In this document: positions 15,005 to 64,000 of the stretch, in pieces | How the letters are laid out: each line of letters opens with the position of its first letter | Position numbering within the stretch: the stretch's first letter is position 1 | From: Cetorhinus maximus | Taxonomy: Eukaryota | Assembly: GCF_964194155.1 (NCBI RefSeq) | Contig: NC_135901.1 | Span: 6,200,001 to 6,264,000 of the forward strand | DNA length: 64,000 nucleotides | Direction of reading: 5' to 3' | The notes under the pieces: generated by a model | What the model was told of the DNA's origin: nothing | What the model saw: only the letters and a program-made list of their open reading frames with translations | Databases searched by the model: none | Translations under genes and position numbers: made by a program

Positions 15005-15062
15005 ACTCACCCTCCCCACCCCTAACAGTGCAACACACCGTCAGTAATTCTTGCCTTCATTG

Positions 15063-15330: not shown

Positions 15331-17134
15331 CCACTGAGGAGTGTGAGACTTGATGTTGTGCTCATGTCTTTGGAATGGGACTACAAATCTACAACTTTTT
15401 GATTCGGGGGCGAGATTACTACCCCTTGCACCCTGACCACTATTTAACTGTCGTGTCCCAAGGGGGTGGCCATTTTACTTGACCATTATCATGTCTAAGT
15501 GGATGCAACATTTCACAGCTGGTTTCTGAGTCAAGTTAGTCACTTTGGATGCCACTTTGCTTCCATTAACCAATAATTGGCTCAATGAGATGGTGGAGAT
15601 GTTACATAATAAATATTTTGAGAGGCGACAATGAGTCAATGGAAACTGGGCTGCACCTTTTACACATTGACATAGGTGCTTCAGTTAAGTAGTCAGAAGA
15701 GATCAATTAGCATTATATAAAAGCTGTGGGAGCATTTGGCAGAGTTGTATGATTGGGTGGTTAGTGAATGATGAACCTTCAGTTGAAGACAAACAGGAAA
15801 TGTTGGGAGCAATCAGCTGGCTGGGCACTATCTTTGGTGAGAAACGAGAAAAGCAAGTTCTTTTATCAGAACTGAGTAAAGATAGAAATGGAATAGATTT
15901 TCAGCAAGTGGAGATGATTGTTTTCAAAATTGAAATGTAAGTGATTGAAGGATGAGCAGTTTTATGGTGTGGTGTCAAGGCAATTAGTTTTGGGATAAGT
16001 AAAGAAACAAAATGTGTCTATAGGTGTGAATGGCAGAATTTTTAAGAGCAGCTGTTGTCTGAGTGCTTAAAAAAAAAGTAAAAGTGAAACTGGCAAAGGA
16101 AACAAAATGGGGGCAGAGATTAGTCTGAAATTTTTGAACTTTAAAGGCTGTAGGCAATGTCTGATTTGACAGATGAAGTACTGTTCCTTGGGCTTCACTG
16201 GAAAAGTGGAGCAGGCTGAGGACAGGTTGGAGTGAGAACAAGGTAGAGAGTTAAAATGGCTGGTAACAGTTTTTGTGAACTAGTGAGGGGAACAATAGGT
16301 TTTTTCCTCATCTCTTGGTCATAGCACTGTTTTTCGCATGCTTGTTACTTCTGTGGTGAAGGAGGAACCCAAAGCTCTTGAAGCAACGTTCCCTTTGCGT
16401 TTTTGGAAATTTGAATTGCTGAGCAGCTCCTTGTCTGTCCTTCCACTAAACAAATTAGGGAGGCTTTGATTGTTTCCAGTGAGCTCAGCCAGAATTGTCC
16501 AAAACCATTAAAGTTTCTTAGTGAATGATCCATGGAATAACATGTCCGAGAGGAAGACGGCTATTTGTGTTGGTTTATTTGAAAGTGCTACCTTTTTTGT
16601 CCTGTAATTGTGACTGGTAGCGCAGAGCCGATCCTCCTTTTAATATGGCTAATGTTCGTTGGAGCTGTTGGCCTCCAGCGTAAACCAGGAAAACTGATTT
16701 GAAATTGAGATAGAAATGGTTATTGGGAGAGGGAAAGTGAATGTTTGGTGTCTGTAATTAATTTCCAGTCCCTTTTTAGCACGATGTAATCTCTCAGTTG
16801 AATGATGCTGTCTTGGTGGAGATATATGTTAAATCTAAATGTGCTAAGCACTGCAGTGATAGATTTAATCAGGCCATTGAGCAGCTTTGCACAATTAATT
16901 TGATTTGAAATGCTATTGATTTTCCTGACAAATAATGATACTCATTAATTTGAGTTTCTAGTCTAGAGTTCTGACTGAGTTGTAATGTTACATTATTTTA
17001 CAACGAAAAATCTGACTTTGTTCTAAATTGGATATTCCGGCTTGTTTTTGACAATCACCCAATCATGTTCCCTAGTACTTAGCTTTTAGATGCTGACTGG
17101 GATCTTTAAACATATGAATGTGATTATAATAGGT

Positions 17135-34697: not shown

Positions 34698-34897
34698 NNN
34701 NNNNNNNNNNNNNNNNNNNNNNNNNNNNNNNNNNNNNNNNNNNNNNNNNNNNNNNNNNNNNNNNNNNNNNNNNNNNNNNNNNNNNNNNNNNNNNNNNNNN
34801 NNNNNNNNNNNNNNNNNNNNNNNNNNNNNNNNNNNNNNNNNNNNNNNNNNNNNNNNNNNNNNNNNNNNNNNNNNNNNNNNNNNNNNNNNNNNNNNNN
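34698..34897. other. Assembly gap (200 N)
   Basis: Run of N. Confidence 1.
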
Positions 34898-38770: not shown

Positions 38771-40218
38771 GTTGTTTAATACATTTGTTTGGATCTGGAG
38801 GAGAGGTAATCAAAGACCAGACAGATTTAAATCCTCTTTTCCTTTTTTAATGTTTGTACAATTTATAATCCATAATCCAGTATGACTCTCACATCCACAG
38901 CTTGTATTTATGTAGCATCTTTAACATTGTGAAACATCCCAAAGTATTTCACAGGAGAATTATCAATCACCATTTGACAATAAGCCATGTAATGATTAAC
39001 AGGGCAGATGAAACCAAAAACTTCATCAAAGAGGTAGGATTTAAGGAGTATCTTAAAGGAGGAAAGTGAGGTGGAGATGTTTATGGAAGGAATTCCAGAG
39101 CTAACTGACTGTCCTGCAGTGGAAACATTTTCTTCCTATCTACCTGTCGAAACCTCTCAGCATTTTGAACACCACCATTAAATTTCTCCATAACCTCCTT
39201 GCTCTCAGGAGGGAAATCCCAACTTCTCCAGTCCCTTCACAGAACTGAAATCCCTCATCCTTGGTATAATTCTGTTGAATCTCTCCTGCACCCTCTCTGA
39301 GATAGTGACGTCCTTTCTAAACTGAGGTGCCCAGATTGGTCATGAAATCCAGCTGAGGTCTCACCAGTGGTTTAATAAAAGTTTACTATAGCTTCCTTGC
39401 TTTTGTACTCTGAGCCTATTTCAATGAAGACAGGATCCTTTGTGCTTTATGAAAGCCTTATCAAATAGCCCTGCTACCTCCAAATATTTCTCTATATACA
39501 AAGTGTTCTTGTTCCTGCATTCTGTTTAAAATTGTACCATTTAGTTTATACTGCCTCTCCTCATTCTTCCTTCCAAAATGTATCATTGACTGTGGATCCC
39601 GTTGGGATGTTCTGAGGATATGAAAGGTGCGAAATGAACACAGGAACTTTCTTTCTGTTTTACAGCTGATTAAAAGTTGTCGATTTTGCTCCAAAGATTA
39701 AATTGAAATTGATATTCAAAGTTACCTATTTTGCTGCAGAAACAACTGGGAGTCAGAGAATTAAGAGGAAAGATCCCAGACAGATGTTCTTCAAGGTACA
39801 CTGCAGGCCCAGCAGCTCAATCAGCTCCGCACTCAACTCAGAAGACCTTAACAACTACCCAGAGGGGAGTTCTCCTGGTGCAGTGGGACCAACATTCGTG
39901 TTTTAACTAACACCACTAAAAAACAAAAATCTGGATTAATTGGTCATTTGTCTCATTACTATTTGTGGGATCTTGCTGTGCACAAACTGGCTGTTGTGAA
40001 AGAACAAAAAGAGCATTTCAAAAGGAACTAACTTGTCTTCGTGCTTTTAAAAAGACACAACACACTGTTTAATACAAAGCTGATTTGACACTTATCCAGA
40101 ATTTGAACAATTGTAACTAGACTGCAGTTTATCAAAATCATCAGAAACAGATCCCAACTCTCAGAATGAACATGGTTCTGTCCTGGATGTGGTTAACAGC
40201 AGAGTCAAACCCTTGCAG

Positions 40219-41254
40219 TCACTTGTGAACTCGCTGGTGCATCAGCAGAGTGGAAGAACGAGTGAATCCCTTCCCACACACAGAGCAGGTGAAAGGCTTC
40301 TCCCCAGTGTGAACTTGCTGGTGCCTCCACAGATTGCATGAACGAGCAAAGCTCTTCCCACATTTTGAGCAGGTAAATGGTCTCTCCCCAGTGTGAACTC
40401 GCTGATGTACAGTGAGGTCAGATGATTGCCTGAACCCAGTCCCACAGTGAGAGCACCTGAACGGTTTCTCGTCAGAGTGAACTGGTTGATGGTGCGCCAG
40501 GTCTCCAGAACTTTTATAACATTTCCCACAGTCTGAGCATTTAAAAGGCCTCTCCCCGGTGTGAACTCGCCGGTGTATCAGCAGATTGGATGAATTAATG
40601 AATCCCTTCCCACACACAGAGCAAGTGAACGGCCTCTCCCCAGTGTGAACTCGCTGATGTATCAACAGGCTGGACGATCGCCTGAAGCTCTTCCCACAGT
40701 GAGAGCAGCTGAATGGTGAGTAGCCAGTGTGAATGCGCTGGTGCTCCCTCAGTCCATATGGACATTTAAAGCTCCTATCACAGTCAGAGCAATTAAACTG
40801 TCTCTTATCATTGTGAACTTGCTGGTGTCTCAGCAGCCCAGATAAAAACATACATCTCTTCCCACACAGGGAACAGGTGAATGGCCTTTCCCCAGTGTGA
40901 ACTCGCTGGTGTGTCACCAGGGTGGATGAATGAACAAATGCCTTCCCACACTCAGTACAGGTGAAAGGCTTCTCCCCCGTATGACTGCGTCGATGACCTT
41001 TCAGCTCAGAGGCATAATTGAATCCTTTCCCACAATCCCCACATTTCCATGGTTTCTCCCCAGTGTGACTCCGCCTGTGTTTTGACAGGCCACATGATCG
41101 ACTGAAACCTCGTCCACACACAAAACGTGTACGGTTTATCCCCACTGTGAACAGTGCTAGTTCCTTCCATGTTCAAAGGCCGATGATATTCAAATCCAGA
41201 GGAATTGAGCAGCTCTGTCAGATCCCGATGTGATGTTAGGTTTGGGTTTCCCAT
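40219..41254 (-). pseudogene. ZNF-A: KRAB-less tandem C2H2 zinc-finger gene (10 intact fingers plus 1 broken); probably disrupted
   Basis: TGEKP/TGERP-linked fingers in ORF 40219-41145. A 2-bp deletion in the first finger (~41120) puts the upstream ATGs (41254, 41170) out of frame. The family acceptor TTTTACAG|GATATT is mutated to TTTTACCAAATATT (~41280). Confidence 0.75.
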
Positions 41255-42439
41255 CTGTACATTCTCTCCTTTTAATATTTGGTAAAACAAATAGAAAAAA
41301 GGAAAAAGAGAGTGTGAGAGAGAACACAAAAACAAAAAGACAGGTTGTGAAATTGAGCAGAATTCATGGGGCCAGCATTAGAAAAGAGACCATGAAAGCT
41401 GCCGGATTATTGTAAAGACCCAACTGTATACTGTTGTCCTCCAGCGAAGGGAACCTGCTATCAGGTTTGGATCTACAGAACAGGGAGAGAATTGGGAGGT
41501 GGCAGCAGTGGAGGTTTTCTACATCTGCACCTCTACCAGACGTTTGACAGAACCTGTCACCTCCACCATCTACAAAGACAAGGGCAGCAGGTGCATACAT
41601 ATACCATCATCCTTTTCAAGTCACACACCATTCTGAGTCAGGCATATATCCCTGTTCCTTCATCGTCACTGGGTGAAAATCTAGTAACTCCTTACTAAGA
41701 AGAATTGTGACAGGACCTTCACCACACTGACTGCAGTCGTTCAACAAGAAGGCCCACCGTCACATTTTCAATGGGAAACTGGGAATTGACAATATGTGCT
41801 GGTCTCACTGGTGATGCCCAATTCCCATGAATGAAGTGAAAATTTTCTGTACTTGCCAAATGGATTAAAAGACTCTACACATAAACTTGTTAATAAAACA
41901 ATACTGTTTTCTGTTGCAGTATAGGAACCGCGTCAGTTTAATAAACTAATTTCTCCTAGAATCTACCTCCCTTTAGCTTCCCACATTGGAAATTGTTGGG
42001 CTCAACAAGTCCTCTGGGTTTCAGAGCAGTGGAGGAGACTAGAACCTGGAGACGCAGTTTAAGAATAAGAGATGAGAAATTTAAGACTTAGATGAGGAGG
42101 TTCGTTAGCCTATGGAATTCACTTCCCGAGAGCACAATAGAGGCTGGGTCATTGTTCAAGGCAGAGTTAGACAGATTGTTGATAGACAAGGGAGTCAAGT
42201 GTTGCAAGGGCAGACAGGAAATTCAAGTTGAGACCACAACCAGATTAGCCATGATCTTATTGAATGGTGGAGCAGGCTTGAAGGGCTGAATGTCCTTCTC
42301 CTGCAGCTAAGTTCTAGTCCTATGGGTTAAACCCAGCAGCCTCACCTCCATCTCCACTTCAGTTCAATGTGCTTCTGCATCCAACACTATCCTGATTCAA
42401 ACCTGGTCTGTCTGTGTTTCTGGATTCAGCCTGCAATAG

Positions 42440-42580
42440 AACAAAAGCAAAATACAGTGGATTCGAGCAATCTGAAATGCAATAAGAGAAAATGCAGGGA
42501 AACACAATAGGTCAAGCAGTATCTGTGGAAAGAGAGAAACAGAGTTAACATTTCAGGTCGTTGACCTTTCCTCAGCCTCG
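42440..42580 (+). mobile_element. Penelope-like element terminal fragment
   Basis: AAAAGCAAAATAC..ATCTGAAAT..GAAAATGC..CAGTATCTGTGGA..AGAGTTAACATTTCAGGTC, same family as 57124 onward. Confidence 0.6.
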
Positions 42581-42594
42581 AATAAAACAATTAC

Positions 42595-42890
42595 CGACAG
42601 TTCCCACAATCCCCCGCGCCCCAGAAACCGCTCTAACCAACTCACGCCTTTCCCCAGGGCCAGCCGCGGGGCATTCTGGGCAGCTCCTTTGTTGTGAGTC
42701 GGACTCGGTGGAAATGGGAGAAGAAACTGGGAAGCGGCAGCGAGGATGGGGGAGGCGCTGCAGCATTGCTTTAATGGGCAGCCCCGACCCCCAGCAGCCC
42801 CCAGCCCGGGGAGATCACCGCACGGCCGCCGGGCCCGGCCGCTCCCATTCAGCCTCGGAGAGCCGCACTCGCTGCTCCTGAGGCTGTGCT
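42595..42890 (-). promoter_or_regulatory. CpG-rich first exon/promoter of ZNF-A
   Basis: Highly similar to 56657-57000; minus-strand donor GTCG|GTAATT at 42595. Confidence 0.6.
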
Positions 42891-43184
42891 CACCCCCCGC
42901 TCAGTTTCTCCATTGAATCCTGTTTCTCTCATTGTTTTTCCCAATTCAGATTCACCGCCTCATTTTATTTTCTTCCTCTGAGCCCCTGATCTCCATCTGA
43001 CAGGGCCGTGTTGGAGAGCAGGCATTGACTGTCCTGGGAAACAACAGCAAGAGGAACTCAGAGGCCCGAGGAGCAAGGAAGCAGCGAGTTCACCAATTGG
43101 AGCAATTGAGGCCTGGAACCTGAGTTGGCCAGTCAAGTGAGTCAGTTGGAACCCCTGGTAGACAAGTTATCATTAAAACATTCT

Positions 43185-43487
43185 TTTTTTTGGGGATGTG
43201 AGCGTCGCTGGCTATGCCAGCAATTATTGCCCATCCCTAATTGCCCTTGTTTAGAGGGCATTTAAAAGTCAACCACATTGCTGTGGATCTGGAGTCACAT
43301 GTAGGCCAGACCAGGTAAGGATGGCAGATTTCCTTCCCTGAAGGGGATTAGTGAACCAGTTAGGTTTTTATGACAATCAACAATGATTTCATGGTCCTCA
43401 TCAGAGTTTTAATTCCGGATTTTTATTAAATTTAAATTTAATCATCTGCCGTGGTGGGATTTGAACCCCAGTCCCCTGGGTCTCTGG
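43185..43487 (-). mobile_element. tRNA-derived SINE
   Basis: Family core and reverse B-box GGGATTTGAACCC. Confidence 0.75.
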
Positions 43488-43827
43488 AAAACAACAGAGT
43501 AGTTTAAATGTTGTCAGTATTTTGATTTCCTGAGGCTCTGATTATGAGTTTCAGACATTCTGTGCCACGTGGATGAGGGTTTCCAAGGTCATGCATCTCT
43601 CTCTTTGCATGTCGATGTTTGTAAAAAATATACAAATTGATTTCCCCCTCATGTTTCTATTTTCAATGCTGAGATGGACAATGCCCCACCAATTCCCACT
43701 CCCCTTCTTTCTCGTGGTTAATGGAGGGTCCATGCACTTGAGTTGATGCATAATTTTGTTCCCAATTTTAATTATTGCCTCCCGCCTCAATCTGCCCATC
43801 AGTTGAAAAAACACTAATGAGGACCTG

Positions 43828-44210
43828 TAATGGCGGGGTCATTACCCAGCATTCCCCGCGGTGGTGAATGTTCCCCCATCCAAACCACAGGAGTGGTGCG
43901 CAGGCGCAGGTCCGATCTGTTTGGAGTATGCGCAGTGAGAGTGATGGCGGTGGGGAGAGACGCTCTTTTGTCTCATCTGCAACCGGTAAGGAAATTGAAA
44001 CGCGGAGGGACCGATAGAGCCGGCGGGTCGACAGGGACGGTTTCGAAACACCTACTGAAGGCCTCACACCTCGAATAAGAATTTGCAGGTCCCGGGTTTG
44101 CAGCTTCGAGTCCTTTTCTCGAGAAGTGGCCCAGGTGAACTGCCGCCATCTTTGTTCAGCGAGGAGTAGAGCGCATGCGTTGGCGACTGGGTAGAGTGGG
44201 CGGGGCTTCA
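43828..44210 (+). promoter_or_regulatory. CpG-island promoter/first exon of ZNF-B
   Basis: Paralogous to 61183-61565. NRF1-like TGCGCAGGCGCA and GCGCATGCG, YY1 CCGCCATCTT, GC box, candidate donor CCG|GTAAGG at 43985. Confidence 0.65.
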
Positions 44211-45229
44211 GAATCTCTGTTCCCTGCCGAGTCCTAGTGCCCGGGTAGTGCAAACAGCCGCTCCAGTTTTTTAAACAGCTTCACCTATTCCCAGACTGCA
44301 GGTGATGTTTGCAGCCCAGAGGAGACCATGTATATATTCAGTCTGAGAGGTAGCAGCCATGTATGGTTACCTGAGGGGCTGCTCTTCCATGTTAGTTTAC
44401 GCTTCAGCCCCAGGCTCCTGATCTTGCTGCCCAGTGGGAGGTGGTTAAGACAGAGGATCTTCTACTGGAGCTGCTCTCGGTTAAAACAGCATTTTGGAGA
44501 TCAAGGGTGGGTGGTATCTATGGCTGCTGGCCTCTCTTCCATGGTTTTGTCTGTGCCCGAGTGGCCTTGGACAAGGAACATGCGGTGTCCACCGATAGAC
44601 TTGATACCTCCCACAACCGGTGGTACCTCAGGGTACAAAGTGTCTCATAGACACTGGAAACAATATTCTGGTTTAGTTGGGAAGGCTCTCTTCACTTTTG
44701 ATGGAACTTTGTTGCCAATTTTAGTTTCTTTTACTTTGATTGGATCACGTGTTTGAGAAAACAAGTGGAAAGAATGTTCCACAGAAATAAGTCTAACAAG
44801 AACAGTCTGTTCTGAATTTCTATCCTGCACTGATCGTGATACTGACTCTGTCAACTCTATTTACAGAGGATTAGAAGGAGAGGACTTGCTGATGGGAAAC
44901 TCAAACCAAACATCAGATCAAGATCTGACCGAGCCACTCAATTCATCAGGACCTGAATATCAACGGCCTTTGAACATTTAAAAGGTGGAAGGAGAAATGT
45001 TTGTCTGTTCTGTCTGGGGGAGAAGAATTCAACCATCGGTGTGACTGGAAAAGCACCGAGACACCCACACATCCGAGTGAGTGTGTTTCAGTGAACTGAA
45101 CTTTAACCAGTTACACAGCCTGAAAAAACATTACACTGTCCACAGTGGGGAGATCTGTACATTTGCTCTGTGCGTGGATGAGGCTTCAACTGATCGACCA
45201 ACCTGGAGAGACACAAGGACACCCATACC

Positions 45230-46123
45230 ATGGAGAAACCGTGGAAATGTGGGGACTGTGGGAAGGGATTCAATTACCCATCCCTGCTGGAAATGCATCG
45301 ACGCAGTCACAGTGGGGAGAGGCCATTCACCTGCTCCGTGTGTGGGAAGGGATTCATTCAGTCATCCCACCTGCAGACCCACCAGCAAGTTCACATTGAT
45401 GAGAGGCTGTGTAACCCCTCGGACAGTGAGAACAGCTTTCAAAGCTCCAAGGACCTGATCAGGCACCAGGTTGTTCACACCGAGAAACAGTTCAGTTGCT
45501 CTCACTGCGGGAAGGTGTTTAAAAGATCACAGAATCTCATTGAACACGAACGCACTCACACTGGGGAGAGGCCGTTCATCTGCTCTGTGTGTGGGAAGGG
45601 ATTCACTCGGTCATCCCACCTCGCTACACACCAACTAGTTCACACAGATAAAAGACCTTTCAAATGTTCTGACTGTGAGAAGAGTTATAAAACCACAAGC
45701 GATCTGCTGATCCACCAGCGGGTTCACAATGAGGAGAGGCCATTCAGATGCACAGTGTGTGGGAAGGGATTCACTCTGTCATCCAGCCTCCAGAAACACC
45801 AGCGAGTTCACACTGGGGAGAAGTCATTCACCTGCTCCTTGTGTGGAAAAGGATTCATTTATTTAACCAGCCTCAGATCACACCAACTTGTTCACTCTGA
45901 TAAGAAACCTTTCAATTGTTCTGAATGTGAGAAGAGCTTTAAAACCACAAGTGTTCTGCTGAGACACCAGCGAGTTCACACTGGGGAGAGACCGTTCATC
46001 TGCTCCGACTGTGGGAAGGGATACACTCGCTCATCCCACCTGCTGACACACCAGCGAGTTCACAATAGTCTGCAGGGACTGGATTCTGCTGTTATTGCTG
46101 CTGTTAATCAGATCCAGGAATGA
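45230..46123 (+). CDS. ZNF-B: KRAB-less C2H2 zinc-finger protein, 297 aa (9 intact plus 1 degenerate finger), with C-terminal LQGLDSAVIAAVNQIQE tail
   Basis: Open ATG-to-TGA ORF. Acceptor ATTTACAG| at 44866; decayed fingers upstream at ~44995-45229. Confidence 0.85.
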   Translation: MEKPWKCGDCGKGFNYPSLLEMHRRSHSGERPFTCSVCGKGFIQSSHLQTHQQVHIDERLCNPSDSENSFQSSKDLIRHQVVHTEKQFSCSHCGKVFKRSQNLIEHERTHTGERPFICSVCGKGFTRSSHLATHQLVHTDKRPFKCSDCEKSYKTTSDLLIHQRVHNEERPFRCTVCGKGFTLSSSLQKHQRVHTGEKSFTCSLCGKGFIYLTSLRSHQLVHSDKKPFNCSECEKSFKTTSVLLRHQRVHTGERPFICSDCGKGYTRSSHLLTHQRVHNSLQGLDSAVIAAVNQIQE

Positions 46124-46484
46124 ACCATGTTCATTCAGACAGCTGGGCTTTGTTTCAGCTGATGTAAGTAACCCGTATAACTGAGCTGGAATTTAATATT
46201 CTGGATAAATGTCAAGTGAACTAATATTGTTACAGGCACACTTTCGAGACCTTGATTTCTCCAATATGAGATTAATTGATGTCCAGTTGCTAACTGCTCC
46301 ATTTTTGGAGCCTTTTCTCCTTTCTAACTCTAGATTATTTCAGTTATCATGCCTTTAATTACTCTCACGGACAAGTCCCATACCTTCCAAACTGTCCCTC
46401 CTAGCCTTGGTGTCCAGGAAAGGTATTGGTAACACTCCCGGGATCACTAAACACAAAACCCAGTCTTTTATACTGATGTGCTGG

Positions 46485-49665: not shown

Positions 49666-52064
49666 TCAAAGTGTTAACCATTAGGACTTGACTCCACATG
49701 CTTTCTTATCTCAAATAAGTGGACAAAGAAAACATCTTAAGGCATCCGATTATCTCAGTAGAAAGCTACAAAATTTCATGAAATGACAGGAAAATCTATA
49801 ATGAGGGGCACAGTCCCACAAGTTATTGACACATTAGAGTGTGGAGAGTCAGGAGATTAAATGAAATGGCATCAGTAGATGACCCATCAGAAACTAATCA
49901 CGCACCACCTAAACCAATCGGACTGATCATGCATCGTCTGAACCAGAGTTCAGGAACACTACTGATCGTGCACAGGGGCTGTGTCTAGAAAGGGTTAATA
50001 AGCACCAGCTTTCAGGAGCATAGCTGCAGCTCCAGGAAGATGAGCAGGAAGAAGATAGATTACAGTCAACAGAACAAGAGACAACATGACAGTTGGCCAG
50101 AAGTCATGAGCGAGTGTTCCAAAGTGAACCGACTGTTTCCACTGCCTTTGGTAAGTTTAGCATTTTGTAATTATTATGATTAACTTAGTAAATTCTGTGA
50201 AGCTCGTGACAGCTCACTTGTAAGAAGCATGATCCTGTAGTGAGTCAGAACTGAAAGTCCTTTTATATCAGCTCTCCCAACTCAAGTCTAATAATTGTAA
50301 TTGACTTAAGTTTTACAATTAAGTTAAAGCAAACCCTAGATCTGACAGAAATTGACACAAAGTCCAGCTGTTATAGGGAGGACTTTGCAGGGTCATTGAG
50401 GGTGATCTGTCTGGTTTTATTAATTTCTGTAGAACTTTGATACAACTAAATGGCTCGGCCATTTCAGAGTCCGCTTCATTGCTGTGGTCCTGGAGTCACA
50501 TGTCGGCAGGCCAGGTAAGGACGGCCGATTTCCTTCCCTAAAGAGCATTCGGAACCACATGAGGCTTTATAAAAATCTGATAGTTTTATGATCATCATGA
50601 CCAGCCTTTTTAGATTTATTCCAAGTTTATGAATTAATTAAATTTATCCCCAGATACCCTCAGTGGGATTCAAACTCATGTCTCCAGACAATCATCCAGG
50701 TCTCTGGATCACTAGTCCAGTAGAATTAACACTCTACTGCCATTCCCTTGTGTATGTATTTAGCAAGAGCCTGCAGGCTGATGAGACTCTGTTAAATTGC
50801 TGGTGTGCTCCTGTACTGCTCTGTTTTAACAGGAGCCTGCAGGCTCATGAGACTCTGTTAAACTATCAGTGTGGTTCTGTATTCTGCCTGAAATGTAAAA
50901 TGACTGAACCTTTTGTTCCTGTTATGAAATGAGGGTGTATATTAATGAGTCTCACATCCTTGCCCATGTCTGCTGCAATTGTGTAGAAGGGGGATGTGTA
51001 GAAGAGCTGGTCTTTGTATGGAGATGTGAACCAAGGAAACGGTATTTGTGTGTGATAGTGACACAGCCTTGTGCTTACACTCAGAACAATGCACAGATAT
51101 CCTTGTTATATGCTGAGCAGAGTCAGATCATGAATGTAGTGAACAAGTTAAATTTAAATATCTCCTGAGTAGCCACAGTTTGTTAGATCACAGCTGAGAA
51201 GAAGAGAGTTCTGTATTATCACTGTTATAAAGAAAAAGTAATCATACTCTATTATTCCCAGGATGTTAATAAAGTCGGTAAAAAACAATCTGTTGTAGCT
51301 TAATTTTCTGGTGTCTGAAACCACAAATTTCAACATTTAGAGTCAACAAGATGAGCAATTAAACACATCAGGGCCCAATACTGCAGATCAATATTCCCAG
51401 GGGAAAGCCTGTATCCAACATCTCGAGTAGATGGAACAGAGAAAGATCCCAAATATATGAAATCCTGAATCATTTTGTAAATATCTTTCAAATGCCGATA
51501 GGATCCAGCTGTCAGTTTCCGATACATTGAAGTCAATGGAAAGTGAGAGAGAGGCTGGAGAGTCAGGTTGAAAGCAGAGTTGGGGCCACTTACACTGAGA
51601 CACCAAATCCAGGGACCATGAACACAGAGTATAAAATGGGAATCAGAGAGTCTCAGTCTGGGGAATGGTCCTGGTGGTGAAACCAGCTCTAGCGAGGGTG
51701 AAAGATGAGGAATAGATGAAGCGATGATGATGGAATCAGATGGTGACCAGCGGGGCTGCTGATTGGTTATTGTCAAAATCTCTTTTCAGGCAGGATGATG
51801 ATTGGCTGTAAGCAGCTCAACATCTGGATCCACCTGCTCTTGTCCTGCAGTCTAATGTCCCTGATGTTTGTTTCTGTGCGAAATGTCAAGATGTGAAAGG
51901 AGGGAGGAAATCGGGCTCGAGCCAGAAGCAAGGGTCCTCAAATGAACAATTCATGAAGCTGTTTTGTGATTCGTCTGTATGAGGTTCAAATACAAAAAAT
52001 GGAAAAGGATGTGTCAAGTGATACTGGTGTTATCAATTATGGTTTCTAACTCTCATCATTAACT

Positions 52065-52450
52065 CCCAAACCTAACATCCTATTGGCCAGCCCAAACCAT
52101 TAATCCCAATCCCAACCACTGACCCCAATCCCAATCGATAACCGCGAACGCACAAATACTGACCCCAACCCCAATCGATAACCATGAACGTACAAAAACT
52201 GACCCCAAACCCAACCAATAACCACTACCTGCAAACATTGATCCCAAACCCAATCAATAACCCCGAACACTAACCCCAATCTGAACCAATAACAGCTAAC
52301 CCCAAACACTGACACCACCCTAACCAATAACCACTGCTGCAAACACTGACCCCAATTCTAACCAATAACTGCTAACGACACCCAAACCCTAGCCCAATTC
52401 CTAACCCCAGCCCCAATCACTAAGACCAGCACCTAAGACCCAGCTTAACT
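52065..52450. repeat. Degenerate ~39-bp C/A-rich repeat with CCCTAA/CCCAAT motifs
   Basis: ACTGACCCCAATCCCAA.CAATAACC.C.AAC..CAAA units. Confidence 0.75.
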
Positions 52451-53249
52451 AAGGATCATTGACAGGTAGCTATGGAGGGGCTAAAGGGCTGACACAGGAA
52501 GAATTTGAAACAATTCGCTCAATTAAGGTAATAGTACGAGGTATGTTCGTAACAAGAGATTAAATCAATGAGACCATCAAAATCAGCAATGAAAATTACA
52601 AAGATCAGAACATTTCAAAAGTTCTCACACACAGTACACGTGGAGTAGTTTTACTAAATCAGGTTCCAAAAGGGTAAAATAACACAGAAAATAACAGATT
52701 TCAAATCTCATACAAGATTGTTCTCTACAGAGTTGTGCAAATGAAATCTAGATGTGTGTAAAGTGAAACATTACAGTTCAGCCTGTAACCCACAAGCAGC
52801 ATAATCAAACGGAACAAGCTTGGGGTTTCTTTTCTTCTGCTGTCGGGGAGTAGAAGCAAAAACCACCTTAAATGTCAATATCTGAGTCAGACACCCAGGC
52901 CAAAGCTTCTGGTGTAACAGTGTGGATATCTGATAAGCTGCCTGTGAATTTCCTCTGAGGACAATGTTTGACCATGTGCTGCAGGGTCTGTTTAGGAGCT
53001 CCACAGTCTCATGATAGGAACAGGAGAAGGCCACTCAGCCCATCCAGCCTGCTCCCGCCATTCAATATGATCATGGCTGATCGAACACTTCAATGCCTTT
53101 TACCCCACACTATCCCCATAACCTTTTATGTTATTGTTAATCAGAAATCTATCAATCTCTCATGATGGAGATGTTTTAATCTTCCAGCTATTGAGAAGGT
53201 GGCAGCATCCACCATGACCCGGTCTGAGGCTCTTCAGGCGTGGATGATC

Positions 53250-54350
53250 ACAGCCTTCTCAGGGCCCATCCTGTTACATGATCATAGATCACAACTAACA
53301 TCATCGCAAAGGACTCTGAACTTGTCATTGAATCAACCTCCGGTGAGAGCAGCAAATCAAATGAAACTGTCCTCTTCAGGACCAAAGAAAACCACACATT
53401 AGACCAGCTATCCCAATATGTCAGCTTAACATCTAAGGCATCTCTCACTCAAAATGCCAGTCTCTCCAAAGGTTACTCAGGAAACACAGCATTGATGCCC
53501 TGGTTCCTCAGGAAACACATATCGAACACATTCACCAGTTCAACACAAAGAGGACATATTAAAGGTTTTGACCTAATCGCTTGCAATGACCATCCCAATA
53601 CGGTCATAGGCATGAACATACTCGGCCCCGTGAGCCTGCTCCACCATTCAATAAGATCATGGTTCCACCTACCCCCAATAACATTTCACCCCCTGGTCAG
53701 GTGTGTTACATCAAATAAAGTATCGAGGGCTGCACCAAACTGAAGCAGACCAGTGTTTCTGGACTTTTCACTACGGCAATAAGTGTAGGAGAGTTAACAA
53801 TCTACAGATGACTATAAACCAACAATCGTACCTGACCCACTGCTTCCTCCTCATCAACATCCATCCATCCATCTCAGAATCTTCAATATCTACCACACAA
53901 TGTGGGGTTATGTAGATGTCAACTATAATGGAGAAGCAATTGTACAGTGAGCTTTACTAGAAAATAACTTCCTCCTTTTTGTTGTCAGGGTTCAAGGTAC
54001 ATTCCATTAATCAAGGTGGCAGAGAGAATATAACTTGGATCTATGCTTCTTCTCCAACTAAAGCAAAGGAAACCCAATCACCACCTCCAGAACCATTCCT
54101 GACAAATTCCTAACAGTCAGCACAGGTTTTCCCATCATCCCATCATTGGCAATGAAAATCCTGTCATCACATCAACAGCAGAAACACGATGGAATTTCAA
54201 AAAAGAAAACCGGGAAATCTTCCAAAAGGCAATTGACACCAACATCAGGTGGATTTCACCAATGTGTTCAACAGATTTATGGGATTGATGAAAGTTCGGA
54301 GCTAAATATGGAGAAGATGGACTCGATGAGAACAGAAATAACCTTGAGTT
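53250..54350 (+). mobile_element. Non-LTR element 5' remnant with AP-endonuclease (Ingi/Vingi- or RTEX-like)
   Basis: IPICQLNI*GISHSKCQSLQRLLRKHSID..QETHI resembles APE motifs I and II. Confidence 0.5.
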
Positions 54351-54616
54351 AGAAAAGGCCCCAAATAATGGCCCAGTCAGGAACAGAAGATCAATCAGTC
54401 TCCTCTTATCATTGGGGAAATCAAATCTTCAAAACACCGTGTGTCTGAAGCAAAGCTGATTGAGTCAATATTTACACAGAACATCAATGTGCAACCCAGC
54501 TATCAAGCTTATTAATGTCAGCAGCAACAAACTCTGACTGTCAGAATGAACATGGTTCAGTCCTGGATGTGATTAACTACAGCAATAACAACAGAATCCA
54601 AATCCAACCCCTGCAG

Positions 54617-55483
54617 TCACTTGTGAACTCGCTGGTGCCTCAGCAGTGTGGATGAACGACTGAATCTCTTTCCACACACGTGGCAGGTGAATGGCCTCTC
54701 GCCACTGTGGACTTGCTGGTGGGTCAGCAGGGTGGACGATTGAGTGAATCCCTTCCCACACACTGAGCAGATGAATGGCCTCTCCCCAGTGTGACTCCAC
54801 TGGTGATTAAGTAGGTTGGACATCCAAATGAAACCTTTCCCACAGAAAGAGCAGATGAATGGTCTCTCCCTGGTGTGTGTGTGTTGGTGCATCAGCAGAT
54901 CAGCAAGGTTTTTAAAGCTCTTCTCACAGTCTGGACATTTAAATGGTATCTTAGTGTGAACAAGTTGGTGTGTCAGGAGGTCGAATGAACGGGTGAATCC
55001 CTTCCTGCACACAGAGCAGGTGAATGGCCGCTCCCCGGTGTGAGTGCGTTTATGGTTCAATAGATCATTCTTCCTTTTATATTTTTTGTCACAGTCAGAA
55101 CATTGAAAAGGTCTTGCCTCACTATGAATACGATGATGTGACAGGAGGTGGGATGAGTTAGTGAAGCCTTTCCCACACACGGAGCAGGTGAACAGTCTCT
55201 CCCCTGTGTGAATTCGCTGGTGTCTCAGAAGGTGGGATGATTTAGTGAATCCCTTCCCACACATGGAACAAGTGAATGGTCTCTCCCCAGTGTGACTGCG
55301 GCGATGAATATGCAGCTCAGACGGGTAATTGAATCCCTTCCCACAGTCCCCACATTTCCACGGTTTCTCCCCAGCTGGACAACACTTGTGGTTTGACAGG
55401 TTATATGATCGTCTGAAGCCTCGTCCACACAGAGAACACATGAATGGCTTCTTCCAGTTATGAACAGTACTTTCTGATTCCAT
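54617..55483 (-). CDS. ZNF-C: KRAB-less C2H2 zinc-finger protein, 288 aa (9 canonical fingers plus 1 C2HC-like)
   Basis: ATG at 55483 (MESESTVH..) opens an uninterrupted ORF to TGA 54617; acceptor TTTTACAG|GATATT at 55590. Confidence 0.85.
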
Positions 55484-56059
55484 GTTCAAAAGCTGATCTT
55501 GTTCGTGTCCCAATGAATTGAGTGACTGTCAGATTCTGATGCGATGATTGATTTGAGGTTCCCATCCACAAATCATCTCCTTCGAATATCCTGTAAAATT
55601 AATTCAAATGGGAGAAAGAGAAGTGATAAACACAGTAGCAGGTTGTGAAATTGAGCTGAATGAGTCTGGTAACTTGTGGGGAGGGCACTAGGAAAAAGTG
55701 ACCATGAAAGCTGCCATTGTCATTAAAAGCCCAACTGATCCTTCAGTGAAGGGAATCTGGCCTGGACCTACACAAGAATCCAGCCTCGATGGGAGGAGAA
55801 AGACTGAGGTGGGAGAGGGAGGGAGTGAATGAGAACCTTCACCAGCCCAAAGGACAGTGGAACAGTATCAACCGCAAATTCCCCTTCCAATCGCAAACCA
55901 AGCTGACTCACACTTACAGTGCCATTACCTCATTGTTGCTGGGTGAAAATCTTGTAACTCCTTAACTCAGCACTGTGACAGTACCTTCACCACACAGACT
56001 GCAGCAATTGATCAAGCATCACCTTCTCAAGGGGAAACTGCTGATTGTCAATATTTTTT

Positions 56060-56390
56060 TGAATTCATTCACAGACGTGGGTGTCGTTGGTTAAGCCAGC
56101 ATTTAATGCCCATCCCCAACTTCCCTTGAGATGGTAGAGGTGAGTCACCTTCTGGAAAGGCTGAAGTGCATGTGTTATAGGTACACCCAGTGTTGTTAGG
56201 AAGGGAGTTCCACGATTTTGATCCAGCAACAGTGAAGGAATGGGAATATAGTTCCAAATCAGGATGGTATGTAGCTTAGAGGGGAACTTGCAGGTGGTGA
56301 TATTCCCATGCATCTGCTGCCGTTGTCCTTCTCGGTGGTAGAGTTCGTGGGTTTGGAAGGTGCTTTTTGAAGGAGGCTGAGAGAGTTGCT
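56060..56390 (-). mobile_element. Second LINE family, 3' fragment
   Basis: SFTVAGSKSWNSLPN plus family tail. Confidence 0.75.
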
Positions 56391-56656
56391 GGTCATGCTC
56401 GTGATGCCCATGTCCCAATAATTAATTGTAAAAGTTTCTGTATTTGAAATATAAAGCGTCGACATAAATACTGTCTCCGACTTGAAATACGGCTTTTAAT
56501 TGGTCCGTCTGTGTTTCTATACTCGGATTTATCAGCAACGCGTACAATTAAACAAAAGCAAAACATGCACATGCAGGATGTCTGAAATTTTTACAAAAGT
56601 GTTTGCTAAGTCAGCATCTGTGGAGAAGGAAACAGAGTTTGCAACAAAACACTCAC

Positions 56657-57105
56657 CGATAGGCACTGACTCATGGTGGCTGATTCCCACAATCCCCCGC
56701 GCCCCAGAAACCGCTCTATCCAGCTCGCTCCTTTCCCCAGGTGCTGAGTGCGCATGCGCCCAGGGCCAGCCGCGGGGCATTCTGGGTGGCTCCCTTGTTG
56801 TGAGTCGCACTCGATGGAAACGGGAGAAGAAACAGAGAAGCGGCGGCGAGGATGGGGGAGGCGCTGCAGCATCGCTTTAATGGGCAGCCCCTCGCCCCCG
56901 ACCCCCAGCCTCCCAGCCCGGGGAAATTACCGCACGGCCGCCGGGCCCGGCCGCTCTTTCTCGATCTCTGAGAGCCGCATTCGCTGTTCCTGAGGCTGCC
57001 ACATCGCGCATGCTCTGTGCATGCAGGCGGACACAGGGGGCGGGGCCTTTCCGCACCTGCGCGTTACGGCCCTTCTGATGGGGATGGGACATGTTCACGC
57101 GCGCG
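56657..57105 (-). promoter_or_regulatory. CpG-island first exon/promoter of ZNF-C
   Basis: Paralog of 42595-42890; donor ATCG|GTGAGT at 56657; NRF1-like GCGCATGCGC; GGGGCGGGG GC box. Confidence 0.65.
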
Positions 57106-57123
57106 GAACATTATGGACAGGCT

Positions 57124-58219
57124 AAAAGCAAAAAACTGCGGATGCTGGAAATCCAAAATAAAAATAAAAATACCTGGAAAAACTCAGCAGGTCTGGCAGC
57201 ATCTGCGGAGAGGAACAGTTAACGTTTCGAGTCCGTATGACTCTTCAACAAAACAAAGTAAAAATAGAAAAGAAGTTAAAAAAAAGCTGGTTTAAGGGGG
57301 GGAAACAGGTAGAGCTGGATAGAGGGCCAGTGATAGGTGGAGATAGCCAAAAGATGCCACAGACAAAAGGACAAAGAGGTGTTGAAGATGGTGATATTAT
57401 CTAAGGAATGTGCTAATTAAGGGTAGAAAGCAGGATAAGCAAGGTACAGATAGCCCTAGTGGGGGTGGGGGAAGGGATCGAAATAGGCTAAAAGGTAGAG
57501 ATAAAACAATGGATGGAAATACTTTTAAAAATAATGGAAATAGGTGGGAAAAGAAAAATCTATATAAATTATTGGAAAAAAAGGGGGGTGGGAAAGAAGG
57601 AGATGATTTGTGGATGGGAACCTCAAATCAAACATCGCATCAGAATCTGACAGTCATTCATCTTCCGACTAGGCACTTTACAGCCTTCCGGACTCAATAT
57701 TGAGTTCAACAATTTTAGATCATAAACTCTCTCCTCCATCCTCACCCCCTTTCCGATCCACCCCCCGCCCCCCCCTTTTTTCTGATAATTTATATACATT
57801 TTTCTTTCCCCACCTATTTCCATTATTTTTAAATGTATTTCCATCCATTGTTTTATCGTTACTTTTTAGCCTATTTCGATCCCTTCCCATCACCCCACCC
57901 CACCTCACCCCCACTAGGGCTATCTGTACCTTGCTTGTCCTGCTTTCTACCCTTAATTAACACATTCCTTAGATAATATCACCATCTTCAACACCTCTTT
58001 GTCCTTTTGTCCATGACATCTGTTGGCTATCTCCACCTATCACTGGCCCTCTATCCAGCTCTACCTGTCCCACCCACCCCCTTAAACCAGCTTCTATTTC
58101 ACCTCTTTTCTATTTTTACTTAGTTCTTTTGAAGAGTCATACAGACTCAAAACGTTAACTGTGTTCCTCTCCGCAGATGTTGCCAGACCTGCTGAGTTTT
58201 TCCAGGTATTTTTATTTTT
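57124..58219. mobile_element. Penelope-like element in inverted (fold-back) configuration with TSD
   Basis: The left arm (57124-57590) is the reverse complement of most of the right arm (57661-58219). ATTATGGACAG is duplicated at 57110-57120 and 58220-58230. Confidence 0.85.
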
Positions 58220-59249
58220 ATTATGGACAGACTGACTCGCCATTCATATCTGTTCGCAGGGAGAGGAAAGTCAGGGGTTACAGTCATAGAAAAGTAGAAT
58301 GTAAAACAATGAACATTATCCACTTCCCGGAGAAGTGAATATGTCGGAGAAAATGATTATGTTAATTGCAAAGAATTACTTTTCTTTGATTTTAAATAGT
58401 TCAGTTTATACATTGAATCATGTTTAACTGTATTTCCGAACTCAGATGCATGGACTCATTTTTTATGTTCCTCTGAGCCCCTGAACTCCATCTGGCTGCA
58501 TAATGTTAGTCAGTGGTGATTGATTGTCCTGGGAACTCCTGGAGATGGCTGAAGCTCCAAACAAGGGAGATGTTCCAACATCTTCCACAAGAATGAGAAT
58601 GGATACAGAACTGGTTACCATCAGCAGCACAGGGCAATCAAGGCAACTCTGAGGTTCGACAAAATCCAATCCATGTAAGACAGAAAGGTACTAACCTAGT
58701 CCTATTCCTTACATGGTTCAGGTCCTCAATGAAGGATTTAAATGATGAAATCCATGTGTATTTCAGTGCCGGTATTATACAAGTGATGTATTGATTTGTA
58801 ATTTTAATATAATTTTAATTCCATATTCCTTCTTTTAATATCCATTACCACTTCCCTGTAATCTGAATTTGCTTGTCTATTCTTCTTACTACATGATTCT
58901 TACATGTTTCTATATTTTTAACTTGATTATTTTGTCTATATATGAATTTTCTGATGTAAGTCACACTTTAATTCAGCCTCTGGCTGCGAACGTGTTTCTT
59001 GAATAAAATACCATTATTATAGCTCACAGTATGGGATCACAAACTCAGAATTACCAATTGGCACTGGACAGGAGGGTAAATAGTGACTAGGATTGAAACC
59101 CACCATCACACAGCAGCTTCATGAGAGAAAGGGAGAAAAATCTGAGCATTGCATCCCTGTTGATGTTTATAGGCTGTATTCTACCACATGGAGCATTCTG
59201 GGTAGCATCATCCACCATTATCTTCAGATGCTGCCAAAAGAAGGTGGTC

Positions 59250-59760
59250 AGTTCATCGTATTTGTACCTGCTCATTAGTGTAGCGATTGAATTAGTCCCA
59301 CTCCCCTGTTCTTTACTCATAGACTTGGATATTTCTTCCCTTCAACTTTTCACCCAATTCTCCCAAGAATGTTGCTATTGAATCTATTTCCAGCACCCTT
59401 GCAGGCAGTGCATTCCAGATCACAACAACTCACTGCTTAAAAAAATGTTCTTTTGGTAATCGCCTTAAATCTAAGTCCTCTGGTTACTGAACCTTCTGGA
59501 GAGCCTTCCTCCTTCTTTCCTTCTGTCAAAACCGCTCATCATTTTGAACTCCTCTATCACATCTCATAGCCCTTTTGTTCTGAGGAAAGCAATCCCAGTT
59601 TCTCCAGTCTTTCCATGTAACTGAAGCCTCTTATCCTTGGTACAATTCTAGCAAATCTCTTCTGCATCCTCTCTATGGCTTTGACATCCTGTTTCAAATG
59701 TGATACCCAGAGCTGAAGACAGCATTCCTGCTCAGGTCTAACCAGTGCTTTAGAAAATCA
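59250..59760 (-). mobile_element. CR1 fragment
   Basis: Reverse CR1 3' ORF2 sequence (GCAGTGCATTCCAGATCACAACAACTC..). Confidence 0.65.
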
Positions 59761-59959
59761 AGCGTTAACTCATTTAACATAAACACACTCAAAATAAATT
59801 GTTCAAGTTATGCACTAAAATACCACATGGAGTTCACATCAGGTTGCTAACTGCTACTACAATTGTATATCAGGCATTTGATCTCCAGGTAAAGAAGGGT
59901 ATGATAACATCGTGGTTGTCCATTGGTGATCCCTTATGTCGGGGATGATTCTTTCTTTT

Positions 59960-60355
59960 GGATGACTGGGTGGCAGTGAGATGTCAGTGGGTTCACAGGT
60001 GAATAATGAGCCCTATCTTAGCCTTGCAAGCTCTTCCTACAGTGAGGATTATGGGGGTTCTCAGCCAGTAGAGTTGGTGGTGGATTGTTGGCTTGAGCAA
60101 CTGCCCTCTCTGGTCATCTCTTGTTGGCTGTTCTTGTTGATTGGAAAGTCTTGATGCCATGTTTGAGGATGAATCACCACTTTAGGTCGTGATTGGGCAT
60201 CTGCTTCCCAAGTGTTTATGTTCATAGAGCACACCATCATGGAGGCTTTGAGATTGTCTTTGAAACATTTCCTTTGGCTCCAAGTGAAGGAGCGCCTTGG
60301 TGTAGCTCTGAGCACAGCACCTATTTGTTCAATCTGAATTTGGGCATTCTAATTA
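59960..60355 (-). mobile_element. RTE-type LINE 3' remnant
   Basis: QRKCFKDNLKASMMVCSMNINTWEADAQSRPK resembles the RTE C-terminus (QKKRFKDTLKASL..WE..A.DR). Confidence 0.55.
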
Positions 60356-60810
60356 CATAGTGGTTACATTACTGGATTAGTAATCTAGAGACTGGAATAA
60401 TAATCTGGAGATGTGAGTTCAAATCCCACCACAGCAGTTAGAGATTTTAAATTCAGTTAATTAAATAAATCTGGAATAAACATGTACAATAAAAGCTGGT
60501 ATCAGTGATCATAAAACTATAGGATTGTCCAACTGGGCGTCCATTGGACATCCTTTAGGACAAGAAACCTGCCATCCCAACCTCATGGGTCTGCGGGTGA
60601 CTCCAGCCCAACAGCAATGTGCTTGACCCTTGAAATGGTCTAAAAGCCACATGGTTGAATCAAAACTGCTCAGAGAAACTAAAATCCTCATGGACTGCAG
60701 TAGTTCTAGAAGATGGATCACCAAGGGCAGTGATCTCAAGGGCAGTAAGGGATGGCAATAAATGCTTGCCTAGCCAGTGACACCTGCATACAGTGATGAA
60801 TGAAAAATAA
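60355..60810 (+). mobile_element. tRNA-derived SINE
   Basis: TAGTGGTTA A-box, GAGTTCAAATCCC B-box, LINE-type tail GGCAATAAATGC. Confidence 0.7.
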
Positions 60811-61182
60811 TTCCCTGTGTTACTGATATGTGGCAGCATAACTGAAAATACATGACCAAGAGTGTCCACGTGAATGAGCCCTATTTTAGTCTTGCAGGCT
60901 CTTCCTTCCGATCTCCTGAGATCACGTTTGACTGGTGGGGGTGGTGGGGGGGGGGGGGAGGGGTGTTGGATTCTTCTGCCATTGCTGTGGTATTGGAAAA
61001 CTTCTGAGGGATTCCCGATTCTCCATCAATTACTATTCCCCTTCTTTCTGACGGATAATGGAGGGTCTGAGCTCTTGGGTTTCTATATAATTTGGTTCTT
61101 AAATTTATCTGTTGCCCGACTCGCGCCCCAATCTCCACATCATAGTAAAAGACAATCAGTGTTCACTAATTAGGACTTTCGA

Positions 61183-61565
61183 TGGCGAGATCCTTACCCA
61201 GCATTCCGCGCGGTGGTGAATGTCCCCTATCTACACCACACGAGAGCCGTGCGCAGGCGCAGTGCCGATCACTGTTTGGAGCATGCGTGATGTGATAGCG
61301 ATGGGCAGAGACGCTCCTTCTCCGCATCTGCAGCCGGTAATGATCCAGAAATCCAGAGGGAGCGATGAAGCTGGCCGGTGAACGGGGATGGTTTCTAAAT
61401 GCTTGATAAAGGTCTCAAAACTCGAAGAAAAACCTGGGGAACCCACGTTTGCAGCTCCGGCGCTTTTCTCCTGAGAACAGGCCCACTTTCACAGCCGCCA
61501 TCTTGGTCCAGCGGGGAGCAGACCGCATGCGCAATCTTCCCGTGACGTAACGGTAGGCGGGGCCA
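61183..61565 (+). promoter_or_regulatory. CpG-island promoter/first exon of ZNF-D
   Basis: Paralog of 43828-44210. TGCGCAGGCGCA, CCGCCATCTT (YY1), CGCATGCGCA, TGACGTAA (CRE-like); candidate donor CCG|GTAATG at 61336. Confidence 0.65.
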
Positions 61566-62221
61566 GGAGAGAAAATGATGGGTTCATTGATTTTATTGTC
61601 ACTCTGTGGATAGGAGCTGGAGAACTGAACCCAGGCAGGGGACAGGGAGAAAGGGAACTGGGAGTGGAGGAAATAAACTGTGGAGATGGTGAGATGGGTT
61701 TGGATTTCAGCCCAGGGAGGAGGGAGACTGTGTGGGACGGGAATTTACAGCTTTAGGGGAACAAGAGAAGAAAAAAATGTTCCGTAGAAACAAGAATTGT
61801 CTGTTCCGATTTCTATCTTGGACTTAAAGTAATTATTTTTGTAAACTCATTTTGCAGGATATTAGAACGGGAGGATTTGCAGATGGAAAGTTCCAACCAA
61901 ATATCACATCAAGATCTGATAGAGTCACTCGGTTCACCAGGACCTGAATATCATCAGCCTTTCGAATGTAGAAGGAGTAATGTTTTACTGTTCTGTTTGA
62001 GGGAAAAAAATAAACATCAGTGTGACAGGAAAATCACCGAGACACACACACACTTGAGTGAGAGTGTTCCAGTGCACTGACTGTGAAAAGAGCTTTAACC
62101 AGTTATACAGCCAGAAAAAAACATCACACCATTCACAGTGGAAAGAAACCGTACACTTGTTCAGTGTGGGGCAAGGCTTCAATCGATCATTCAAACTAGA
62201 GAGACACAAGGTAACCAAAGC

Positions 62222-63506
62222 ATGGAGAAACCATGGAAATGTGGGGACTGTGGTAAAGGATTCAATTATCCATCCCGGCTGGAATACCATCAACGCAGTC
62301 ACATTGGGGCCAACACCATGGAGAAACCATGGAACACCATGGAAATGTGAGGACTGTGGTAAAGGATTTTATTATCCATGCCTGCTGGAAATCGATCGAT
62401 GCAGTCACACTGGGGAGAAGCCGTTCATCTGCTCTGAGTGTGGGAGGGGATTTACTAAGACAGCCTGCCTCATGTCACACCAGCGAATTCACAGTGAAGA
62501 GAGGCCATTCAGATGCTCTTCCTGTGGAAAGAGGTTCAGGCAGTCATCGACCCTCACTGCACACCAGAGAATTCATACTGGGGAGAAGCCATTCACCTGC
62601 TCCAATTGCGGGAACGGATTTACTCAGTCATCCAGTCTGCTGAAACACCAGCGAGTTCATACTGAGAAGAGGCCATTCAGCGGCATGTCCAGTAGAAAGA
62701 GGTTCAGGTCTTCATCTAACCTCATTGCACACCAGCAAGACCACACTAAGGAGAGGCCGTTCACTTGCTCCTTGTGTGGCAAAGGATTCACTCAGTCAGC
62801 AAGCCTTATGTTACACCAGCGAATTCACACTGAGGAAAGGCCGTTCAGTTGTATTTACTGTGGAAAGAGGTTCAGGTCCTCATCCAACCTCAATGCACAC
62901 AAGCGTGTTCACACTGGTGAGAGACCATTCACGTGTGCTATGTGTGGGATAGGATTCACCCAATCAGCCAACCTGGTGGTACACCAGCGAGTTCACACTG
63001 AGGAGAAGCCATTCAGCTGCACTTACTGTGGAAAGCATTTTGGGCAGTTATCCACCCTCACTGCACACCAACGCACTTACACTGGGGAGAGACCATTCAC
63101 CTGCTCAGTGTGTGGGAAGGGATTTACTCAGTCAGTCAGCCTCATGTTACACCAGCGAATTCACACTGGGGAGAGGCCATTCAGCTGTACTTCCTGTGGA
63201 AAAAGTTTCAGGCAGTCATCCGACCTCACTGCACACCAACGTGTTCACACTGGGGAGAAGCCATTCATCTGCTCTGTATGTGGGAAAGGATTCACTCATT
63301 CATCTGGCCTTTGGTCACACCAGCGAATTCACACAGAAAATAAGCCGTACAGCTGTATTGTTTGTGAAAAGCGGTTCAGGTCTTCATCTGATCTTAATGT
63401 GCACAAGCGAGTTCACACTGGGGAGAGGCCATTCACCTGCTCCTTGTGTGGGAAGGGATTTACTCGGTCATCCAATCTTCTGACACACCAGCGAGTTCAT
63501 AAGTGA
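62222..63506 (+). CDS. ZNF-D: KRAB-less C2H2 zinc-finger gene (11 intact fingers in the main frame); 5' part frameshifted
   Basis: Acceptor TTTTGCAG| at 61857. The MEKPWK start at 62222 is cut off from the main array by a 10-bp duplication (ACCATGGAAC/ACCATGGAAA, ~62326-62345). The long finger ORF runs to TGA 63506. Confidence 0.75.
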
Positions 63507-64000
63507 CTGCAGGGGTTGGATTCTGCTGTTGTTGCTGCTGTGAATCACATCCAGGATTGATTGTCTGTCAATATTTAGTTTGTTTCTGTTGATGTTAGCA
63601 ACATTGTAACTGGCTGGAGTTTAATATTCTGAAGGTGTTGCTGCCTTTTGGGATTGCAATGTCCCTTTTTAAAAGCACCATCTGTGATATTTCCCCTTGA
63701 TTCAAGAACTCTTACCAGGAACTAGGTGATAATAAAGTTATGAACTTTTATTTCAATCCTAAATTGATCTTTGGTGCAAAATCTACGATTCTGTGTCTGA
63801 AAGGTTCCTGATTAACATCTCCAATTAGAAAATGCTGATTATCCTTGCTGACAATTCTGACTGACTTACAGATTCTTCAGATTGACACCTCCTTTATGAA
63901 ATTAAATTATCAAGGAACATGAAACAAAGAAGTAAAATATTTTACAGGCACATCAATAAAAGCTTCATCAAACAACATCGATATTGATGAAGTTTGGAAG

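Follow-up and report, generated by a model that had tools for sequence, protein, structure and literature searches.

Organization of the locus

The window analysed here is a stretch of 64,000 nucleotides of Cetorhinus maximus DNA, in which four C2H2 (ZNF) genes, A to D, could be recognized. They form two head-to-head pairs, A-/B+ (40085-46215) and C-/D+ (54506-63530), with paralogous CpG islands, which represent an old segmental duplication. The island beside ZNF-C (56684-57000) matches its counterpart at 42601-42886 at 81%, while a second island pair (approximately 61023-61531 and 43686-44179) matches at 73%. A candidate splice donor for the putative first exon of ZNF-C is located at 56656. 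In all four ZNF genes the frame is broken after the conserved N-terminal stretch and before the finger array begins (55480-55590; paralogs at 41.2, 44.9 and 61.9 kb). Elsewhere in the window, a tandem array (13936-15335) has a GC-rich and CpG-rich core (GC 0.75, o/e 0.9), an imperfect 19/40-nt tandem repeat at 52072-52377 is rich in AACC/CCCA, and a scaffold gap of 200 N is situated at 34698-34897, 22 kb from the insertion described below.

At the edge of the CpG island that is far from ZNF-C, a Penelope-like repeat of very high abundance is present in two 5'-truncated copies, which lie head to head between 57110 and 58230, inside an 11-bp target-site duplication (TSD). ZNF-C is probably transcribed away from this element. 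The insertion looks ordinary for an inverted Penelope-like element, except that a 65-bp copy of an exon of the neighbouring ZNF gene is found at the seam between the two copies. The features are collected in Table 1.

Table 1. Positions of the insertion, its parts and the neighbouring gene features in the window
Feature	Positions	Strand	Remarks
ZNF-C ORF, C2H2 array	54617..55483	-	288 aa
Donor segment in ZNF-C	55519..55583	-	7 nt inside putative 3' splice site (exon start 55590)
CpG island (putative promoter and exon 1 of ZNF-C)	56684..57110	-	CpG o/e 0.80; function putative
TSD, left copy	57110..57120	+	11 bp, ATTATGGACAG
Left arm, inverted 5'-truncated element 3' region	57121..57595	-	57589-57595 ambiguous; possible 1-2 nt microhomology with donor
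Tail, 39 nt, left arm only	57121..57159	-	family terminus near 57123
Degenerate minimal-hammerhead-like motif	57221..57251	-	5-bp helix II, extra base after A9, G10.1-C11.1, GAAAC; C3 and A6 not canonical
Filler, 65 bp, ZNF-C sense	57596..57660	+	63/65 to reverse complement of 55519-55583
Junction microhomology	57657..57660	+	TCA common to insert, donor and family; preceding base C in donor and family, T in insert
Element ORF end, last 21 codons and stop	57660..57725	+	upstream, family contigs carry on
Right arm, sense element 3' region, without tail	57769..58219	+	from arm alignment
TSD, right copy	58220..58230	+	7 of its first 8 nt agree with the element's continuation

The inverted insertion and its family

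On the plus strand, the left TSD is followed by the antisense element 3' region, the filler in ZNF-C sense, the sense element from the ORF end to 58219 and the right TSD. The first-pass annotation, which was based on the letters of the window, had described an inverted-repeat element with paired arms of about 430 bp. This was confirmed by aligning 57152-57588 with 58227-57769 (88.7% over 459 columns); the arms differ by 27 substitutions in 424 aligned bases and by 7 gaps. They are also unequal, the left one carrying an outer tail (57121-57159) and the right side having the ORF end in addition (57657-57768). The sequence ATTATGGACAG occurs in the window, on either strand, only as the two TSD copies (57110-57120 and 58220-58230), and in a chance control a direct repeat of at least 11 nt appeared in 6 of 19,742 random flank pairs (10-nt slop). 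The duplication had been given as 11 bp or longer: it is exact over 11 bp, but not longer. A second inverted element of the same family was not present in the window. An empty site could not be found in the window either, because the sequence on both sides of the insertion point has no counterpart in the paralogous promoter. At 42443-42570 and approximately 56590-56650, older and decayed pieces similar to the end of this element occupy the same edge of the two paralogous islands, and possibly derive from one insertion predating the segmental duplication.

For a comparison with the family, contigs from four of 24 runs (X1, X7, X8 and X15) were placed on 55400-57768, a reference that includes one arm only; 48-65% of three of the runs was covered. 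Between 14,741 and 134,414 records were placed per run, concentrated on the arm and the ORF end, as in a dispersed high-copy family. Among the matches listed, 601 contigs of X7 and 390 of X8 stop at 57123 and have unrelated flanks; measured from this family terminus, the tail is 37 nt long instead of 39 nt. By two family patterns, no copies were found in metagenome or viral contigs.

The probable assignment to the Penelope-like elements is based on structure. In the accessible parts of two reports, the Penelope layout consists of an inverted 5'-truncated copy, a tail of 30-40 bp on one end and a short TSD (PMC3846280; bioRxiv 2021.04.23.441226). The insertion likewise has an inverted 5'-truncated copy giving flanking inverted repeats, a 39-nt tail on one end, and an 11-bp TSD, of the short and variable type, without a poly(A) tail. 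The ORF end presumably resembles the end of a Penelope ORF. Its 21 terminal residues gave no Pfam or PDB match and are too short to count against a GIY-YIG domain. A DNA transposon or MITE with terminal inverted repeats was rejected, as the termini differ by 39 nt and the contigs of the family connect the ORF end with the 3' region on one side and with upstream ORF sequence on the other.

The left arm also contains a motif with features of the minimal hammerhead, for which an extra base after A9, G10.1-C11.1 and GAAAC-GUU have been described (PMC4209133). It was the sole site in the window for a relaxed descriptor that was written after the site had been seen, and its predicted fold is not significant (z -1.8). 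The corresponding part of the right arm (approximately 58125-58160) is further decayed and has lost two CpGs that the left arm keeps. A search of 50000-64000 against Rfam gave no match to the motif or the element and one chance-level match elsewhere; tRNA genes were not found.

The filler and its donor

The segment between the arms had been read as the reverse complement of 55519-55583 with 2 mismatches, copied from ZNF-C among the paralogs of the window, and both statements were borne out. In a best-match test covering the four ZNF paralogs in the window, the filler matches ZNF-C at 63/65 positions, compared with 53/65 for B and 50/65 each for A and D. Nine columns of the paralog alignment, two gap columns counted, are private to the filler and ZNF-C, and a 2-bp deletion common to these two is missing from A, B and D. 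The further claim that the filler represents the start of the ZNF-C coding exon is correct only in part: the donor begins 7 nt inside the putative exon but lies 5' of the present ATG (55483), so that it is not presently coding. In the paralogs the N-terminal frame is open across this stretch, and the donor is now upstream of the ATG because the 2-bp deletion of ZNF-C shifts that frame. A contig of organism B carries the same 2-bp deletion and a further deletion of 3 bp. Before the insertion, donor and target were 1,527-1,591 bp apart.

The two ends of the filler differ in what they have in common with their surroundings. On the ORF side the microhomology probably amounts to 4 nt with one later C-to-T change, of which 3 nt are directly visible. 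On the other side 1-2 nt at most can be common, the stretch 57589-57595 being ambiguous. The filler ends 7 nt short of the putative splice acceptor (55590); its sense orientation would fit an RNA template, and it crosses no exon junction. The 7 nt left of the filler were considered as spliced exon 1, a reading that was dropped since the element's own sequence explains them equally well. At the right end of the insertion, the target agrees with the element's continuation at 7 of 8 positions, as do 94 of 127,570 window positions in a fixed register; this is a modest hint of annealed priming, the register not having been fixed in advance.

Whether the 65-bp segment is part of the Penelope consensus, a point raised by the first-pass annotation, could be addressed with the contigs. 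At 57658, at least 263 contigs of X1, 171 of X8 and 126 of X15 depart into the family's own ORF sequence, and their shared upstream sequence ends in GAACAGCACC; no such departure was seen for X7 among the matches listed. The conclusion that the filler does not belong to the family consensus is supported, because family contigs in three of the four runs carry on into their own ORF at the seam. Within the window, the filler thus maps near the target site and appears to be absent from the element consensus, as a local templated insertion does. Of the X1 records, 14 of 134,414 fit two places of 55400-57768. One contig has a same-strand joint from 57518 to 57660, from arm to ORF end, with a short side of 21 nt; this was regarded as insufficient evidence for a second inverted copy. 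Joints on the opposite strand near 57580-57588 were discarded as ordinary copies seen against a one-arm reference.

Proposed course of integration and comparison with known systems

The structure is quite probably the product of one germline integration, in which element RNA served as the template at both ends of a staggered cut, and 65 nt copied from ZNF-C, at a distance of 1.5 kb, bridged the remaining gap. The endonuclease would have cut the edge of the ZNF-C CpG island with a stagger of 11 nt. Element RNA would then have been reverse transcribed from both 3' ends; with start sites 37-39 nt apart, a tail would have resulted on one arm only, and the right end may have annealed through the 7/8 match. 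Both cDNAs would have halted early, after approximately 475 and 560 nt, and the corresponding truncated copies are seen. Before the two were joined, one cDNA end may have copied the 65 nt of ZNF-C that now form the filler, and microhomology of 4 nt towards the ORF and of 1-2 nt at the opposite junction would have closed the seam. After the insertion the structure would have decayed neutrally; the element is most probably dead.

Two routes could have led to the filler. In route (a), the ORF-side cDNA would jump onto ZNF-C RNA at CTCA and stop 7 nt short of the splice acceptor; this can be put forward tentatively. In route (b), the left cDNA would snap back on its own resected plus strand, copy 65 nt and anneal to the other cDNA via CTCA, that is, a copy of DNA followed by microhomology joining, which is possible but rather doubtful. 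Route (a) is slightly favoured because of the donor distance and the exonic donor. The two are inseparable at this locus since they predict the same orientation and no exon junction is crossed. Of the template switch during integration that had been suggested initially, the part that stands is the copying of a local template at the inversion seam, as indicated by the 63/65 match and the departure of family contigs at this point. The term fold-back describes the shape of the insertion well, but taken as one arm copying the other it does not agree with a tail on the left arm only. Two separate priming events fit better for this reason. A literal fold-back could hardly supply a left-only tail unless the right end was trimmed, which is allowed for in the accessible part of one report (bioRxiv 2021.04.23.441226).

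The timing of the capture bears on an improbable alternative, in which the inverted insertion came first and its palindromic centre broke later, to be patched by host end-joining with a copy of ZNF-C. Long inverted repeats are prone to breakage, and the divergence between filler and donor (2/65, 3.1%) is nominally below that between the arms (27/424, 6.4%). However, this difference is not significant (Fisher p=0.40, or 0.78 when a 66th base is counted), and the filler occupies exactly the expected meeting point of two truncated cDNAs. Capture at insertion is consistent with this divergence, 65 bp having little dating power. One of the changes occurred in the filler and one in ZNF-C, and the junction base may be a second change in ZNF-C. 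The filler keeps a paralog-type base at two sites where ZNF-C is derived, a clear one and the junction site, a finding that would also be explained by a closer ZNF paralog elsewhere, acting as mRNA in trans, or by a composite formed elsewhere and moved, the proximity of ZNF-C then being a coincidence. ZNF paralogs from elsewhere do match 55400-57768 in the contig runs. Yet one or two later donor changes agree with the roughly 2 in 65 predicted at 3.2% per lineage, the nine private columns tie the filler to ZNF-C, and the X1 depth of 482 at 55563, against 126-269 for exact local contigs, suggests little room for many close paralogs, a weak argument as depth is not copy number. A distant donor is accordingly quite improbable.

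That the inverted structure is an assembly chimera can scarcely be credited. Among the matches listed, no contig crosses the seam with the filler or shows an empty site, and assemblers have been troubled by inverted Penelope structures according to the accessible part of one report (bioRxiv 2021.04.23.441226). Against this, the filler differs from the donor at two to three sites and matches paralogs at one or two of them, microhomology is present at the seam and an exact TSD at the ends, and exactly matching X1 contigs cover 55685-55951, 56550-56698 and 56929-57100. A different kind of alternative concerns the fate of the composite rather than its origin: it could have been retained for regulation, as a read-through hairpin or through antisense filler near the ZNF-C splice acceptor. 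The insertion sits at a CpG-island edge, and 414 arm-to-arm pairs are predicted at -744.5 kcal/mol. However, no constraint is evident in the arms, which have accumulated 27 substitutions and 7 gaps, and the hairpin transcript proposed in the first-pass annotation found no support, since the loop with the ZNF piece would be unpaired and ZNF-C is presumably transcribed away from the element. Such a role is very unlikely. Run X15, which is guessed to be RNA, has no depth over most of the CpG island, and this is not evidence on expression.

The exon copy at the seam is most likely a scar of integration, an accident of the process without sign of function. As a single locus, this is a dead insertion without a shown effect on the ZNF gene, and its value is mainly that of a test case for Penelope integration. 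How the inverted structures of Penelope are formed and how integration is finished are still-debated questions. A filler with readable donor, orientation and microhomology is a usable marker, because an RNA jump and a DNA snap-back make different genome-wide predictions. It may be speculated, although this is rather unlikely, that Penelope-like elements routinely prime from both cut ends and close the seam by a jump onto nascent RNA of a neighbouring gene. In that case many transcripts made in the germline within 1-2 kb of an insertion would be preserved as datable fossils in genomes rich in the family, and filler orientation would settle between two-ended priming and the self-priming model.

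No account of a filler copied from nearby sequence into the inversion seam of a Penelope element was found in the literature covered, most subscription papers, such as older Drosophila virilis work, being outside the search. A close likeness exists with the Pen2a-type inverted-pLTR insertions of Adineta vaga, which according to the accessible text also consist of head-to-head 5'-truncated copies with a one-end tail of 30-40 bp, while their TSDs are 8-10 bp (PMC3846280). The same text describes unrelated host sequences captured between pLTRs inside TSDs in rotifers; in its accessible part (PMC3846280) these are not traced to DNA beside the insertion site, whereas here the donor is 1.5 kb away. 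Palindromes at inverted junctions, for which self-priming was proposed, are likewise reported there for rotifer Penelope, in contrast to the host filler at the junction studied here. The anole element Poseidon (PAc) cuts and extends both strands in vitro, with two reverse transcription start sites that bound the tail and a preference for ATT (PMC11167929); the TSD at our locus begins with ATT. In the accessible part of that study, priming takes place without target homology, in contrast to the 7/8 match of our insertion; the closure of the junction and fillers from the host are left aside, and the late steps of Penelope integration are stated as not validated (PMC11167929).

Human L1 offers precedents for both routes. 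For route (a), co-insertion of a nearby precursor mRNA was reported once (bioRxiv 2022.05.18.492429); as far as the accessible text goes, this was a single somatic event in an adenoma clone, whereas here a germline fossil of a Penelope-like element has its filler between two element copies. For route (b), 22 templated insertions, typically shorter than 250 bp and copied from templates outside the element, have been described in the accessible part of another report (bioRxiv 2024.08.27.596794). Route (b) is weakened because such DNA-templated inserts typically come from within 15 bp, compared with 1.5 kb here. A further study on L1 describes, in its accessible part, three inserts that carry genomic DNA from close to the site, and inverted inserts with additional pieces at their internal junction (PMC11702581). 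In L1 twin priming, adjacent parts of one RNA are copied, whereas in the present insertion the same 3' region was copied twice.
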